A DNA stretch of 64,000 nucleotides, taken from an uncultured Chloroflexia bacterium (GTDB lineage: Bacteria; Chloroflexota; Limnocylindria; QHBO01). The translations under genes were made by a program, and so were the position numbers. Every line of letters begins with the position of its first letter. Position 1 is the stretch's first letter. The DNA is taken from positions 96,001-160,000 of the forward strand of contig CAWGTN010000003.1 in assembly GCA_963825525.1 (NCBI GenBank), read 5' to 3'. This document shows, piece after piece, positions 2,152 to 18,122 of the stretch. The notes beneath the pieces were generated by a model, which worked only from the letters and a program-made list of their open reading frames with translations, had not been told where the DNA came from and did no database searches.

Positions 2152-3797
2152 CTACTCCGGAACGCGGATCGGCTGGCTCGGCGCTGGGTCCGTCGTGGCC
2201 GCGGGCCGCCGGAAAAGCTCGAGCTCGGGGACCAGCAGGATCACGATCGCCGCTGCACCTGCGGCGCCCGCCACGGCGAGCCACATCGCAGTCGCGATGG
2301 CCTGGTGGATGGCATCCACGATCTGTCCGATGAGTGGCTCGACGGTCGGCCGCGCCGCGGCCGGGACGCTCGAGAGGATCTGCTGTCCGAGGTCCACGCC
2401 GACGCCGGTCAGGTTGGCGTCGGCAGCGGCGCCGCCGGACGCGAAGCGATCTACGATCGGCTGCGGAACGCCGCCCGCCGCCAGCTGGCGCGGGATCTCG
2501 TTGGCCAGCGAGGTACCGAAGATCGTGCCGGCCAGTGCGAGGCCGACGGATCCGCCGACCTGCCGGAAGAAGGTCAGCGCGCTGGTTGCGGTTCCGAGCA
2601 TTCGCGGTGCGACCGCGCTCTGGACCACGATCGTGAAGACGGTGAAGGACGGGCCGATGCCGAGCCCGGCGATGAACATCCAGAGCCAGACGGTGGTGAT
2701 GGGCGTATCGGATCGGATGCCCGTCATCAGGAACAGCCCCACCGTGCCGACCGCCATGGCCCCGGCCGTCAACCACTTGTAGCGCCCGGTGCGGGCCACG
2801 ATGAAGCCGGAGGCGATCGAGCTGCCGATGACGCCGGCGATGAGCGGCAGCATCTGATAGCCGGACTCGGTCGCGCTCGAGCCCAGCACGAACTGGAACC
2901 AGCGGGGGATGAAGATGACGGCGCCGAAGAATCCGAACGTGATGAGGAACGTCGCGATGATCGAGGCGGTGACGGTTCGGTTGCGGAACAGGCTGAGTGG
3001 CAGGATCGGCTCAGCGGCGCGCGATTCGATCCATACGAAGAGCCCACCGAGCAGGGCACCGATGAGCATGAGGCCGCCGACCTGCGGGTCTGCCCATTCA
3101 CCGGTCTGCTTGTTCGTCAGGCCGAGGAGGAACGGGATGAGGGCTGCCGCGAACACCGAGGCACCGAGGTAGTCGATGGACCGAACGGCTTCGGGATGAC
3201 GAACGGGCGGCAGGAGGCGCCACAGGACCGCGAGCGCCACGATGCCGACCGGGAGGTTGACGAGGAAGACCCAATGCCAGCTGATCGTGTCGGTGAGGAA
3301 GCCGCCGAGCGCGGGGCCGAGGATCGAGGCGATGGCAAAGACGGCACCGAACAGACCCTGGTACTTCCCACGCTCGCGCGGGCTGAAGAGGTCGCCGATG
3401 ACGGCGAGGGCGATCGGGAAGATGGCACCCGCGCCAGTCCCTGGATGCCACGGAAGGCGATGAGCTGGACGATCGACTGGGACAGTCCGGCAAGGAGCGA
3501 CCCGACCAGGAACAGGCTGACGCCGAACATGATCATGGGCCTGCGGCCGAACTGGTCGGAGAGCTTGCCGTAGATAGGCCCGGTCACCGTTGCGGCGAGG
3601 AGGTAGATCGTGACGACCCACACGTAGAGCTCATTGCCGGAGAGATCGGTGACGATGCGCGGCAACGCGGTCCCGACAATGGTCTGGTCGAGCGCGCTGA
3701 GGAAGATGGTGAGAAGGACGGCGCCAAGGATCTCCATCCTGGCGCGCTGGGTGACGTGAACGGGTGCCTGGTCGGGTGCGGGTGATGCGCTGGTCAT
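2152..3797 (-). CDS. DHA2 (EmrB/QacA) MFS efflux transporter; one frameshift near 3435
   Basis: ORFs 3117-3797 (LDQTIVGTALP, GKLSDQFGRR) and 2152-3621 (WHWVFLVNLPVG) join at FRGIQGL/GAGAIFP. Confidence 0.88.
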
Positions 3798-4265
3798 GCG
3801 GTTGCTTCCTCGGATGACGCTGATCGCGCGCGCCGCGGCGTTGAGATCCCTGACCGACGCGGCCAGGCGTTCCTGTTGGGTCGCGTGAGCGACTCGATGA
3901 GCCGAGCGATGCGGTCGCGCCGGCTCTGCTCCATTCTCGGATGAGCTGGCGGCCCTGCTCGGTGAGGGTGACGAACACGACGCGCCGATCGACGGTGTCG
4001 TGCGTTCGCTCGACGATGCCGCGCTCGGCGAGCCTGCCGATGATCCCGGTCGCGTTGGGGAGCGCCACGTCCAGGCGTTCGGCGATGCGACTCATCGGCA
4101 CTGCTCCTCGATCTCGAGGAGTGCGAGCACGCCGAAGCCGACCATGGAGAGGCCGTGCTCCTGGCAGCGAGCGGCCCACGCACGGCGATGCTGGGCCAGG
4201 AGCGGAACGAGCGCGTCGATGATTTCGGCCGCCCGCGATAGGGTGGCGCGCGAGGTTCGAGTCAT
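3794..4265 (-). CDS. MarR family regulator with several frameshifts
   Basis: Pieces across frames: MTRTSRATLSRAAEIIDAL..., MSRIAERLDVALPNATGIIGRLAERGIVER..DRRVVFVTLTEQG, ...SEEATA*; lies upstream of the MFS pump. Confidence 0.8.
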
Positions 4266-4271
4266 CGAGTT

Positions 4272-4311
4272 AATTATGGTGACATGAATGATTATGTCAA
4301 TCGGAATGATT
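4272..4311 (-). promoter_or_regulatory. marR promoter (TTGACA-16-CATAAT) overlapped by tandem AT-rich operator-like repeats
   Basis: -35 at 4300-4295, -10 at 4278-4273, 7 nt before ATG 4265; ATTATG-N7-GAATG repeated with an 18-bp period. Confidence 0.6.
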
Positions 4312-4338: not shown

Positions 4339-4425
4339 CGTGGACGCCGTGTGGATAGCTTCGGAATCCGACCGAAAGTTCGGGGATAAGTGGGCTTGCG
4401 CAGCGCCGGCCCGCGACCCGATACT
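4339..4425 (+). promoter_or_regulatory. DnaA-box-like array plus sigma70-type promoter (copy 1)
   Basis: CGTGGACGC 4339, TGTGGATAG 4350, CGGGGATAA 4381, TTGCGC 4396, 18-nt spacer, GATACT 4420; same layout as 17151-17236. Confidence 0.7.
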
Positions 4426-4427
4426 GA

Positions 4428-4580
4428 GGTCGTCCCGAAGGGGCAAGCGACCGGATCACAAGATTTCGATCATGAGTTCCGGCAGCGGGTTTGGAGGCTT
4501 CGGCCAAAGATCCTGACGGCAGCGGTGGCTTCGGTCACCGAGGTCGGACGCCTGTTCCTTCGGGACATTTCGCATGCCCG
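4428..4580 (+). ncRNA. Unrecognised structured ncRNA, copy 1
   Basis: 24-nt identity to copy 2 at the 5' end; four UUCG-capped hairpins; compensatory changes relative to copy 2. Confidence 0.75.
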
Positions 4581-4590
4581 CGGAGGATCG

Positions 4591-5352
4591 ATGAGCGTGA
4601 CACCGGACGTCGGGCCCGGCGCCCGCGTCCACGACATTCGCGTCGCGGATGACGCCGAGGCCTTCCTGGTCGAGCCCGAAGAGGGCGGACGCGGGCCAGC
4701 GGTGCTCTTCCTCCACTGGTTCGACACCGAAGCGACCGATGGAAACCGCACGCAGTTCCTGGACGAGGCTGCGCACCTTGCGCGCGACCGCGGCGTCGTC
4801 TCCATCCTGCCGCAGGGTCGCTTCCCATGGGCCGGGGATCCTTCCGACGCAGCCAGCGACATCGAGCGCATCGGCGCGGAAGTCGCGGCCCATCGGGCGG
4901 CCGTGGATCTCCTCAGCGCCCGTGACGATGTCGATCCATCGCGCATCGGCCTTGTCGGGCACGATTTCGGGGCCATGCACGGCGTGCTGCTGGCGGCCGA
5001 CGACACGCGCATCTCGGCCATGGTCATCATCGCCGCCACGCCCCGCTGGGGGGATTGGTTCCTTCCGTTCTGGGCGATCGATGGCGATCGGCACGACTAC
5101 CTCCGCGCGCTGGCTCCGGTTGACCCGATCTCGCGGATCGCCGACGTGGCGCCCCGGCCGATCTACCTGCAGTTCGCCCGCAACGACTTCTTCATTGCCG
5201 CCATGACCGGGCTGGAGCTGCACCGTGCCGCCGCCGAGCCCAAGGAGATGCGCGCGTACGACGCCGACCATGGGATGCGCGTGAGCGAAGCGCGCGACGA
5301 CAGGGTCGCGTTCTTCGACCGCACGATCCTCTCGGAGCGCCCGACCGGCTGA
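4591..5352 (+). CDS. Alpha/beta hydrolase (dienelactone hydrolase/acetyl xylan esterase-like) with GHDFG elbow
   Basis: VDPSRIGLVGHDFGA, QFARNDFF, YDADH; GGAGG before ATG 4591. Confidence 0.85.
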   Translation: MSVTPDVGPGARVHDIRVADDAEAFLVEPEEGGRGPAVLFLHWFDTEATDGNRTQFLDEAAHLARDRGVVSILPQGRFPWAGDPSDAASDIERIGAEVAAHRAAVDLLSARDDVDPSRIGLVGHDFGAMHGVLLAADDTRISAMVIIAATPRWGDWFLPFWAIDGDRHDYLRALAPVDPISRIADVAPRPIYLQFARNDFFIAAMTGLELHRAAAEPKEMRAYDADHGMRVSEARDDRVAFFDRTILSERPTG

Positions 5353-17150: not shown

Positions 17151-17236
17151 CGTGGATGGGGTGTGGATAGCCCGCGCCTGACGTCATGGATTCGGGGATA
17201 AGGGGGATTGTTTCGTCAGCGGAGGGCAGAGATACT
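17151..17236 (+). promoter_or_regulatory. DnaA-box-like array plus sigma70-type promoter (copy 2)
   Basis: CGTGGATGG 17151, TGTGGATAG 17162, CGGGGATAA 17193, TTGTTT 17208, 17-nt spacer, GATACT 17231. Confidence 0.7.
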
Positions 17237-17238
17237 TT

Positions 17239-17361
17239 GGTCGTCCCGAAGGGGCAAGCGACACCGGATCACACGGCTTCGGTCATGGGTTTCGGTGCCG
17301 GCAACGGAGGCTTCGGCCGCCGAGGTCGGGCGCCTGTTCCTCCGGGGCATTTTCGTGCCCG
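17239..17361 (+). ncRNA. Unrecognised structured ncRNA, copy 2
   Basis: Homologous to 4428-4580; UUCG/UCCG hairpins; opposite strand to both neighbouring genes. Confidence 0.75.
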
Positions 17362-17362
17362 G

Positions 17363-17920
17363 TCAGCCAACCTCGACCCGCACCGCCTCGATCTCGTCGT
17401 CCGACGCAAGGCGATGCACCGCGCTCAGGCCCCCCGAATCGAGCGATCGGAGGCTGTCGCTCAGCATGCGATGCTGGCGTCGCAGGGCCGCCGGCGGCGG
17501 ACGTGGTGCCGCTCGGGTGGCATTCCGCTCCAGGGCGGTCGCCAGCGACACGTCAAGGACGATCCCGACCACAGGACGGCGGTGCCGCCGCGCGATGGCG
17601 ATCAGCTGCTCGCGCGCCCACGCCTCCACGTTCGTTGCGTCGACCACGGTCAGACGTCCGCGACGCAACCGCATGGCGAGCAACCGGTGCAGCAGGTCGA
17701 ACGCGTCGTCCGTCGCCTCCTGGGCCGTCGGGTCGTCGGTGATCATGGCCCGCAGGTTGTCCGATGACAGAACCTGGCTCGTGCGGAAATGGCGAGTGGC
17801 GAACGTGGTCTTGCCACTCGCCGAAATGCCGATGAGGATCACGAGCGCATCGGCAGGCAGTGCGATGAGCCGAGAAACAGACCGGCCGCCGTTGGTGTCG
17901 GCGGCCGGTGGCGTGGTCAT
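17363..17920 (-). CDS. Stand-alone polynucleotide-kinase-like P-loop protein (AAA_33-like)
   Basis: LVILIGISASGKTTFA, LSSDNLR, TVVDATN, ALERNATR, as in the Pnkp kinase module. Confidence 0.85.
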   Translation of the reverse strand: MTTPPAADTNGGRSVSRLIALPADALVILIGISASGKTTFATRHFRTSQVLSSDNLRAMITDDPTAQEATDDAFDLLHRLLAMRLRRGRLTVVDATNVEAWAREQLIAIARRHRRPVVGIVLDVSLATALERNATRAAPRPPPAALRRQHRMLSDSLRSLDSGGLSAVHRLASDDEIEAVRVEVG

Positions 17921-17930
17921 GAGTCCCGTG

Positions 17931-18122
17931 TCAGCCGTGGGCGTCGCAGTCCGGGCACATCTCGGAGTCGGGAATCGGCGCCTTGGGCTGGCCGATGGCA
18001 CGCGGCAGCGCGCGGCCGCAGATGGTCGAACCGGGCTCGCCGACGAGGTGAACCTTGCTGAAGTGGCGATCGGGCAGCCGCCACGTCACGTAGCGACGCT
18101 GGCGCGTGGGGGTCGAGGACAC
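17931..18122 (-). CDS. 63-aa putative zinc-finger micro-protein
   Basis: GGAG 9 nt before GTG; KVHLV...TICGR...MCPDC; stop 10 nt before the kinase ATG. Confidence 0.55.
   Translation of the reverse strand: MSSTPTRQRRYVTWRLPDRHFSKVHLVGEPGSTICGRALPRAIGQPKAPIPDSEMCPDCDAHG

Follow-up and report, generated by a model that had tools for sequence, protein, structure and literature searches.

Bacteria may carry sets of sibling small RNAs (sRNAs) that answer to a single regulator, such as Qrr1-5 under LuxO, csRNA1-5 under CiaR, LhrC1-5 under LisR and OmrA/B under OmpR. The replication initiator DnaA, in turn, controls promoters, as in dnaA autoregulation and in the Bacillus DnaA regulon. We describe here a family of structured RNAs that shares traits with both systems, and which is represented by two copies in a stretch of 64,000 nucleotides (hereafter, the window) from the genome of an uncultured Chloroflexia bacterium (assembly GCA_963825525.1, contig CAWGTN010000003.1). 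On balance, we favour the reading that these two stretches are genes of sibling sRNAs controlled by one DNA-binding factor, with DnaA as the foremost candidate, and that the RNAs act in trans as folded particles. The relatives of this bacterium are labelled Candidatus Limnocylindria, a group of abundant, uncultured Chloroflexota of lakes and soils from which we know of no regulatory RNA; likewise, no paper mentioning both Limnocylindria and small RNAs was found among the titles and abstract openings of the literature searched.

As in the sibling sRNA regulons, the members of the family are scattered paralogs with their own promoters, a common operator layout, a conserved core and a terminator-like 3' end, and all five copies of the genome share the operator. 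They differ from those regulons in that the core consists of a double helix plus an apical motif, instead of a single-stranded seed, in that the paralogs differ from each other by whole hairpin modules (one to three), and in that the operator is DnaA-box-like. The resemblance to DnaA-controlled promoters resides in direct 9-mers with at most one mismatch from TTATCCACA, placed in helical phase (11 and 31 bp) upstream of the promoter; unlike in those cases, the genes driven here are small RNAs, and their control by DnaA is a prediction. To our knowledge, no DnaA-controlled sRNA family is known and, at the level of titles and abstract openings, the literature searched held no description of this RNA family or of a DnaA-controlled sRNA.

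Fold and covariation of the RNA

The window contains exactly two occurrences of a 24-mer, GGTCGTCCCGAAGGGGCAAGCGAC, at 4428-4451 and 17239-17262 and both on the + strand, as compared to 0.01 expected by chance (two matches were reached in 0 of 100 shuffles); its count in the whole genome, of 2.58 Mb in four contigs, is also two. A preliminary description of this DNA, made from the sequence alone, had placed the start of the element at this 24-mer. The repeat is certainly there, but in a pairwise alignment the likeness between both copies extends around 100 nt 5' of positions 4428 and 17239, into the promoter, and the first three to four bases of the 24-mer (GGUC) are variable among relatives and probably lie upstream of the transcription start. 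Inside the element, the two copies differ in the same alignment chiefly by a 31-nt block of copy 1 that copy 2 lacks.

Copy 1 (4428..4571, + strand) is a long, three-hairpin form that scores 146.1 bits on the + strand vs. 32.9 on the - strand with a model of the long forms (R1), and copy 2 (17239..17353, + strand) is a two-hairpin form scoring, on the + strand, 111.4 bits with R1 and 98.4 bits with a model built from two-hairpin forms of many genera (R2). In the minimum-energy folds of both copies, the conserved 5' segment is paired with the conserved 3' segment in a closing helix of 17-18 bp, P1, which encloses three hairpins in copy 1 (P2, P3 and P4) and two in copy 2 (P2 and P4); when only local pairing is allowed, the fold is less stable by 14.3 kcal/mol for copy 1 and by 9.5 kcal/mol for copy 2. 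The layout of P1 comprises a core, 5'-CCCGAAGGGG paired with UUCCUUCGGG-3', a 1-nt mismatch and 3-4 covarying pairs. In copy 1, the 5' strand of P1 (GUCCCGAAGGGGCA-A-GCG, 4432..4449) pairs with its 3' strand (CGC-C-UGUUCCUUCGGGAC, 4549..4566), which is followed by AUUUC at 4567-4571. Enclosed between them, all on the + strand, are P2 (CCGGA...GAU-UUCG-AUC...UCCGG, 4451..4482), which bears the family-wide apical GAU motif with its GA/AA flanks; P3 (4487..4513), a UUCG-capped module recognised from the alignment and the fold and absent from copy 2; and P4 (CGGC-AG-CGGUGGC-UUCG-GUCACCG-AG-GUCG, 4517..4546). Both P2 and P4 are supported by the fold and by covariation. The parts of copy 2, on the same strand, are P1 (17243-17260 with 17331-17348), P2 (17262-17297), P4 (17298-17329) and the U tract (17349-17353).

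The hairpins listed in the preliminary description are indeed present, with GAU-UUCG-AUC and GGC-UUCG-GUC within CCGGA/UCCGG, CGGUGGC-UUCG-GUCACCG and CGGAGGC-UUCG-GCCGCCG, as is the extra module of copy 1. Conversely, the conserved 5' and 3' segments, which it had treated as separate units, are the two strands of one closing helix, and the 3' hairpin that it had drawn there (TGTTCC-TTCG-GGACA) forms only three pairs in the UUCG register, the segment being the 3' strand of P1. A six-pair hairpin with a three-base loop does exist in this 3' segment, and its copy 2 version was picked up by a terminator scan. Local hairpins in the 5' and 3' segments could form instead of P1, at a cost of 9.5-14 kcal/mol, and in several paralogs a change of G15 to A breaks the local 5' hairpin yet makes an A-U pair in P1. 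A small open reading frame (ORF) was likewise discarded, because the AUG inside P2 of both window copies reads AUCAAG in other genera and there is thus no conserved coding frame.

Rfam 15 produced no match at gathering thresholds in the 64-kb window, in agreement with the earlier proposal of an unrecognised family, and the best sub-threshold matches on the element were at chance level (P26, 13.8 bits vs. 36; mir-4523, 18.2 bits vs. 96). With seven single-hairpin relatives, Rfam retrieved only a neighbouring tRNA and chance matches. ARAGORN detected neither tRNA nor tmRNA genes in the window, and a tRNA identity was also rejected for a group of 72-75-nt matches to R1 at around 30-36 bits, which turned out to be single-hairpin paralogs. 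The signal recognition particle (SRP) RNA is found elsewhere in the genome (C1:127515).

Comparison of related sequences supports the fold. From the genus of the organism we collected 49 distinct copies, and aligned with MAFFT the 30 long forms (alignment A3) from which model R1 was built. Under the proposed structure, 92.5% of the cells of A3 were paired and 11 pairs were changed on both sides, as compared to 4.8 ± 1.3 in shuffled alignments, with 0 of 500 as high. The double changes sit in P2, P3 and P4, including five of the 13 pairs of P3; in P1, 13 of 17 pairs were invariant and there was no double change within the genus. A family-wide two-hairpin alignment (A7; 103 sequences, 88 of them distinct), fitted to model R2, towards which it leans, contained 29 of 43 pairs changed on both sides vs. 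17.4 ± 1.7 after shuffling (0 of 500 as high) and 6-14 in slid controls. Here, two inner pairs of P1 also varied, one being CG in 71 sequences and GC in 15, and the other GC in 52, CG in 17, AU in 11 and GU in two. We also aligned, with MAFFT, 30 single-hairpin forms that had been gathered by model instead of by pattern (A8). In this set, the P1 pair A11-U appears as AU (20), GC (5) or GU (5), with zero unpaired, and the pair G15-U as GU (21), AU (7) or GC (2); cells with a double change amounted to 40, vs. 19.3 ± 3.6 in shuffles (0 of 500 as high).

Further changes in P1 are seen over larger distances. In the sister family of the same class, the outermost two pairs are G-C and C-G where the family of the organism has U-A and G-C, and between genera P1 has lost one nucleotide per strand at the same place (CAAGCG/CGCCUG vs. 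CAGCG/CGCAG). From these compensatory changes, the outer-pair swaps and the paired one-nucleotide loss, P1 is, on comparative grounds, a real helix, and compensatory changes back every helix of the structure. The structured, modular and multi-copy nature that the preliminary description attributed to the RNA, with covarying hairpins, is consequently borne out by compensatory changes in excess of controls. So is its orientation: model scores range from 57 to 146 bits on the + strand and do not exceed 48 bits on the - strand, which fits with conserved G-U pairs.

Every member of the family contains one hairpin tipped by a three-pair GAU/AUC stem, with 5' GA and 3' AA flanks, over a covarying lower stem. 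The columns G-A-U ... C-A-U-C-A-A of this hairpin are invariant or nearly so in A8, and the central ten pairs of P1 are near-fixed on both strands, such that the invariant parts throughout the family are P1 and the apical GAGAU-NNC-AUCAA hairpin. The apical loop, of 3-4 nt, varies among UGC, UAC, GAC and CAC, or UUCG in the genus of the window organism; because its letters vary, the motif looks like a recognised shape and not like an antisense seed. The build is unusual, with one sequence-conserved closing helix and one apical motif accommodating from one to three hairpins.

Paralogs and distribution of the family

The genome holds five copies of the element: the two in the window and three single-hairpin RNAs of around 72-75 nt outside it, at C2:1752442-1752516 (+ strand), C2:1064692-1064766 (- strand) and C2:947010-947083 (+ strand), all three with the P1 core, the apical GAU motif and a three-box promoter as in the window copies. 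A scan of the genome with the P1-core pattern returned exactly these five loci. The two diverged copies of the preliminary description are therefore paralogous genes, as it supposed, but they belong to a set of five with one to three hairpins.

A DNA search of 61 related genomes detected the element in 32 of the 36 of the same genus (30 of 34 if the unpublished G006 and G034 are set aside), usually as a pair of like-oriented copies separated by 7-27 kb on a single contig. Unpublished genomes are counted in our tallies, and none of their sequences entered any alignment or model. Model R1 matched in all 50 sampled genomes of the family of the organism, from 13 genera (47 of 47, from 12 genera, without the unpublished G116, G125 and G151), and in none of 100 genomes from four further families of this class. 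With R2, there were 4-5 matches in each of 11 genomes scored from the same family, including that of the window; in a scan of the phylum, this model matched 10 of 10 genomes of the family, one of three of the sister family, with one weak match, and 0 of 137 genomes of other families. A third model, R3, was built from 30 single-hairpin forms and matched 50 of 50 genomes of the family (with the same three unpublished ones included), 36 of 44 of the sister family, and none of 56 genomes of three other families (0/49, 0/6 and 0/1). The search of relatives with models, already suggested in the preliminary description, thus uncovered a family that spans two taxonomic families of the class and whose members have one, two or three hairpins. 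Relatives contain around 3-6 copies per genome, and genomes of the family of the organism had from one to five R3 matches, mostly three to five. A miniature inverted-repeat transposable element (MITE) or other mobile repeat, which the preliminary description contemplated as an alternative, is disfavoured by the stable copy number, the syntenic sites and the pair-preserving substitutions, although target-site duplications were not specifically looked for.

An exact two-motif pattern, applied to one genome per species, retrieved at least 120 stretches. Among the 80 stretch titles listed, 74 were labelled Chloroflexota, Chloroflexi, Chloroflexia or Candidatus Limnocylindria, five bore other labels and one was unlabelled. 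The five records with other labels (L111, L117, L156, L159 and L163) are ascribed to Alphaproteobacteria, Steroidobacteraceae (two), Pleomorphomonadaceae and Acidobacteriota, and could be mislabelled or contaminated bins, or the result of transfer of the element.

The hairpin modules differ among genera. The UUCG-capped P3 and P4 modules are restricted to the genus of the window organism and look like duplicates of one module; other genera bear other hairpins, and their two-hairpin forms, of 109-116 nt, have a second hairpin that is not the UUCG module of the genus. In three two-hairpin copies from two genomes of the genus (L013, L014 and L038), the variable internal loop of the second hairpin is of the P3 type (GUU/GAG) and not of the P4 type (CAA/AGG); because these copies keep the P3-type loop, the short form appears to have more than one origin, through losses of different modules.

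The family is well defined by its models, its covariation-backed structure, its copy-number pattern and its promoter; it could enter RNA family databases, and the annotation of hundreds of metagenome-assembled genomes would improve. Of practical interest is also that the element is often at contig ends and that related metagenome assemblies break inside it (at the starts of G002:C43 and C36, in G033:C112 and in G027:C15, as well as at the ends of G005:C60 and C242), with the near-identical 5' parts of the paralogs behaving as a repeat.

Promoters, upstream boxes and candidate regulator

Copy 1 is preceded by a predicted core promoter on the + strand, with a -35 hexamer TTGCGC (4396-4401), an 18-nt spacer and a -10 hexamer GATACT (4420-4425), in which the hexamers are conserved and the spacer variable. 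The equivalent promoter of copy 2, also predicted from conservation, consists of TTGTTT (17208-17213), a 17-nt spacer and GATACT (17231-17236), on the + strand. When 55 distinct upstream regions of the genus were aligned, a common order emerged, namely YG(G/T)GGAYR, two bases, TGTGGAYAG, around 22 variable bases, TCGGGGATAA, the -35 and the -10. In the genus, the -35 is TTGCGT-like, the spacer is variable and of 17-18 nt, and the -10, which is GATACT here and TATNCT elsewhere, is followed by two bases and then by GGUCG. This architecture is retained in other genera and in the sister family. Its conservation and geometry suggest that these are sigma-70-type promoters, and the usual distance from the -10 would place the transcription start at the opening G of P1 (4432 and 17243), in agreement with the variability of the first bases of the 24-mer. 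From the position of the -10 and the onset of conservation, the predicted RNA of copy 1 would thus start near G4432 and end in the U-rich tract at 4567-4571, on the + strand.

Directly 3' of P1 there is a conserved AUUUC(G)UUG, and P1 plus this U-rich tract looks like an intrinsic terminator, in which a GC-rich helix is likewise followed by such a tract; unlike in common intrinsic terminators, the helix here encloses 45-110 nt of conserved, covarying structure and begins at the predicted transcription start, such that the terminator would amount to the entire RNA. A generic scan called a terminator-like site in copy 2, at 17335-17349 on the + strand (TGTTCCTCCGGGGCA then TTTTCGTGCC). We propose with fair confidence that each copy is a self-contained transcription unit, with termination after P1. 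A putative hairpin between the end of P1 and the conserved tail GUGCCCG was also considered and dropped, because its mean best stem was of 4.09 vs. 4.39 with shuffled tails, and stems of at least five occurred in 22% of cases vs. 43% of shuffled tails.

Upstream of the promoters there are three DnaA-box-like 9-mers in direct orientation. In copy 1, all on the + strand, these are box 1 (CGTGGACGC, 4339..4347), situated 2 bp 5' of box 2 and whose YG(G/T)GGA is kept in the 55 aligned regions; box 2 (TGTGGATAG, 4350..4358), at -78 from position 4428 and with eight of nine matches to the DnaA-box consensus TGTGGATAA; and box 3 (CGGGGATAA, 4381..4389), which in other paralogs is of the GTGGA type. 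In copy 2, they are CGTGGATGG (box 1, 17151-17159), TGTGGATAG (box 2, 17162-17170) and CGGGGATAA (box 3, 17193-17201), also on the + strand. The boxes occupy fixed positions in the five promoters of the genome, at -89, -78 and -47 relative to the initial G of GGUCG, with box 2 being TGTGGATAA, TGTGGATAG or GGTGGATAA and box 3 being CGTGGACAA, TGTGGAAAA, GGTGGAGAA or CGGGGATAA. Boxes 1 and 2 are conserved across genera, and the boxes are also kept in the sister family; in several relatives, a further box in inverted orientation immediately precedes them, and among these additional boxes there are perfect TTATCCACA sites in the sister family. The sequence TCGGGGATAA occurs twice in the genome, at the two window promoters, and the arrangement of box 2 and box 3 separated by 20-24 nt occurs five times, all at the five RNA genes.

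These boxes are similar to those found at dnaA. Within 5 x 130 nt of promoter DNA there are eight 9-mers with at most one mismatch from TGTGGAYAA, which we take to be the reverse complement of the DnaA-box consensus, as compared to 0.058 expected at the genome-wide rate. The whole genome contains 230 such 9-mers (one mismatch), and their densest cluster, with four in 600 bp, lies in the dnaA-dnaN spacer, a 393-nt region (C2:1521198-1521589) that contains the boxes CGTGGATAA, TGTGGACAA, TGTGGACGA and CGTGGACAA and is a probable replication origin. This spacer also has a tandem TGTGGACGG/TGTGGACGA on the other strand and is adjoined by a stretch of 49% G+C. The promoters hence hold clustered 9-mers that deviate by at most one mismatch from TTATCCACA and are of the same type as the dnaA-dnaN boxes. 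We have fair confidence that one DNA-binding factor, acting at the three boxes, would control all the siblings. Since the boxes match both the DnaA consensus and the boxes of the dnaA-dnaN spacer, DnaA appears as the leading candidate regulator, an assignment that we advance tentatively.

Mode of action and genomic surroundings

In the reading that we favour, each copy would be transcribed on its own from a sigma-70-type promoter, from the first base of P1 to the U-rich tract, and P1, or a small local hairpin of its 3' strand, would double as intrinsic terminator. The three direct 9-mers (around -89, -78 and -47) would bind one factor, DnaA foremost, and the transcription of all siblings would be set thereby. 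The RNA would then work in trans as a folded particle recognised by protein, be it as a decoy, a scaffold or part of a ribonucleoprotein, and the longer paralogs would gain or fine-tune binding sites through their extra hairpins. Recognition of the folded RNA by a protein is the weakest step of this scheme, and is hinted at by a conservation pattern in which both P1 strands and the apical motif are fixed while other stems drift; action through a single-stranded antisense seed appears less likely. That the hairpins may bind or titrate a protein, as put forward in the preliminary description, is a reasonable conjecture.

The siblings might nevertheless be base-pairing sRNAs, in which the 3' strand of P1 (GUUCCUUCGGGAC, or CCUCC) would be an anti-Shine-Dalgarno-like seed that becomes exposed on opening or processing of P1 and represses the translation of target mRNAs, in the manner of C-rich or anti-Shine-Dalgarno sRNAs known elsewhere. 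The CCUUC/CCUCC core stays the same throughout both taxonomic families, base-pairing families such as Qrr, csRNA and LhrC typically comprise several siblings with one type of promoter, and the core is near-palindromic, with each strand able to fold locally, which makes a structural switch conceivable. We consider this unlikely, because the putative seed is locked in a helix of 17-18 bp favoured by 9.5-14 kcal/mol and its partner strand is equally conserved, which is not required of a seed; the apical loop varies in sequence and hence offers no seed either. Moreover, a scan of the genome for 9-mer complementarity, which did not include an enrichment test, returned a great number of scattered matches, among which no target class stood out. 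A lower probability is assigned to a leader or attenuator cassette acting in cis, whose promoter and terminator hairpin would govern read-through into the downstream gene. Copy 1 ends 20 nt before the ATG of a hydrolase gene, with a GGAGGA Shine-Dalgarno sequence around 12 nt after the RNA; the paralog at C2:947010 is followed, 31 nt downstream, by an in-frame GTG behind GGAGGG; and, in a survey of 126 related sites in 120 public loci, one ORF family starts around 38 nt downstream on the same strand at 15 sites. Likewise, P1 with its U-rich tract is terminator-like, as judged from the scan of copy 2. Opposed to these observations, a convergent gene comes right after copy 2 and next to the RNA at 62 of the 126 sites, and the downstream genes are unrelated (hydrolase, kinase, ORFs without Pfam match). 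Leaders and riboswitches, besides, conserve loops and junctions and vary P1, the reverse of the pattern seen here, where P1 is the most conserved part; a riboswitch or 5' leader is disfavoured on these grounds, and read-through cannot be the general role of the family.

Chromosomal clusters of DnaA boxes are known from datA, DARS and the Bacillus DnaA-box clusters, and the element could operate at the DNA level, as a set of boxes titrating or modulating the initiator, or as a small mobile repeat, with the hairpin as a mere terminator or insulator. Three to four phased DnaA-like boxes are present at five loci, related assemblies often break inside the element, as at repeats, and Escherichia coli DnaA is reported to prefer sites that come in close pairs (PMC11317965). 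We find this very unlikely, since the part predicted to be transcribed is more conserved than the spacers between boxes, the apical motif, distant as it is from the boxes, is conserved as well, and the 3-6 copies are stable over two families at syntenic sites (for example, beside the kinase gene in several genera), which is not MITE-like. In addition, the pair-preserving substitutions include G-U pairs that are possible on the + strand only, which argues for selection on RNA. Hardly any weight is given to the family being a divergent member, or a functional analogue, of a known protein-binding RNA, either Y RNA (with Ro/Rsr) or 6S RNA (with RNA polymerase). It resembles Y RNA and YrlA in size (around 100 nt) and in having its 5' and 3' ends paired in a terminal helix, conserved on both strands, under a variable modular top, and it would resemble 6S RNA, an abundant type of RNA, in being rod-like, protein-binding and non-antisense. 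Furthermore, the 6S niche looks empty, because the Rfam 6S model RF00013 found no match in the genome or the window, although the same model matched in only five of 14 control genomes. Y RNA was rejected, nonetheless, because there is no Rfam Y_RNA match in the window and no TROVE/Ro protein (PF05731 had no match in this genome, of 91.8% completeness, with the control matched in Deinococcus and Bacteroides); the family also lacks a tRNA-like module, and its P1 differs in sequence from the Y RNA helix. With respect to 6S RNA, the family is shorter (72-145 nt vs. around 180), its P1 has only a 1-nt mismatch, there is no large central bubble, and its longer forms are branched and multi-copy; five copies per genome are unlike both families.

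Several observations weigh against the folded, DnaA-controlled siblings that we propose. On the side of the structure, the z-scores of single-sequence folding are modest (-2.59 for copy 1 and -1.40 for copy 2), such that the structural case rests on comparison. There, the central ten pairs of P1 are backed by one-sided and few two-sided changes only; 56 of the 100 source loci of A7 were found by an exact P1 pattern, and the invariance of the P1 core in that alignment is thus partly built in; and two of five covariation measures in A8 did not exceed shuffles (49 of 500 for double-change pairs and 214 of 500 for further pair types). As for transcription, a generic sigma-70 scan called neither window promoter, because their -35 has only three of six matches, and the terminator-like site was called for copy 2 and none for copy 1. 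With regard to DnaA, a scan with exact motifs (TGTGGAYAG and TCGGGGATAA) detected no cluster at dnaA, only the one-mismatch scan finding one; box 3 of both window copies, CGGGGATAA, is two positions off the DnaA consensus; and phased direct repeats 11 bp apart also fit a response regulator of the OmpR/PhoB type. In turn, no candidate partner protein emerged, with the kinase described below and the RNA not being co-distributed, and some copies may also act in cis by read-through.

Should the regulator be DnaA, a further proposal would be that the five RNAs make up a small-RNA regulon of the replication initiator, the first to be known, with DnaA occupancy of the three phased boxes setting the levels of modular, protein-binding hairpin RNAs. 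We regard this full version as improbable. If true, the RNAs would couple replication-initiation status or replication stress to physiology, and might feed back on DnaA or on repair. Confirmation of DnaA control would connect an sRNA regulon with the replication initiator, a link that is new with respect to the titles and abstract openings of the literature searched. In many genomes, the two-hairpin copy adjoins genes for a stand-alone polynucleotide kinase and an SOS-response-associated peptidase (SRAP).

In the window, copy 2 has a divergent EamA transporter gene on one side and, on the other, a convergent gene (17363..18001, - strand) whose product, of 212 aa, is a stand-alone Pnkp-type kinase domain (Pfam AAA_33, 6.2e-29); it also aligns with positions 3-167 of the 851 of the NCBIfam model TIGR04075 bacter_Pnkp with an E value of 1.2e-49, under the whole-protein cut-off. 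Bacterial Pnkp is of the RNA-repair type. The U tract of copy 2 ends 10 nt from the stop codon of this gene, and it is a homolog of this kinase that is convergent just downstream at the 62 sites mentioned above; past the kinase there is an SRAP gene at 67 of the 126 sites, and a phosphofructokinase gene instead in the window. The kinase was evaluated as an obligate partner of the RNA and rejected, because it is present in only 41 of 50 genomes of the family of the organism and 28 of 44 of the sister family, was not detected with this query in several RNA-bearing genera (g20, 0/3; g25, 0/2; g18, 0/1; g11, 0/9) and is not adjacent to the RNA in the examples checked from the sister family. Its position beside copy 2 is taken as synteny and as a lead, that is, as context only.

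The three single-hairpin paralogs have as neighbours genes for malate dehydrogenase, UPRTase, PGDH, a cyclase and an ABC transporter, with no shared theme, and two or three of the five copies lie 20-55 nt upstream of a co-oriented ORF. Copy 1 is flanked by a divergent gene of the MarR family (3631-4179, - strand) and by an alpha/beta hydrolase gene (4591-5352, + strand). The MarR-family gene has a strong promoter-like site on the - strand, TTGACA-16-CATAAT (4300-4273), 5' of copy 1. Positions 4264-4310 contain a partly palindromic AT-rich stretch, ATGATTATGTCAATCGGAATGATTAGC, which is probably a MarR operator and which several relatives also have 5' of their long-form copy.

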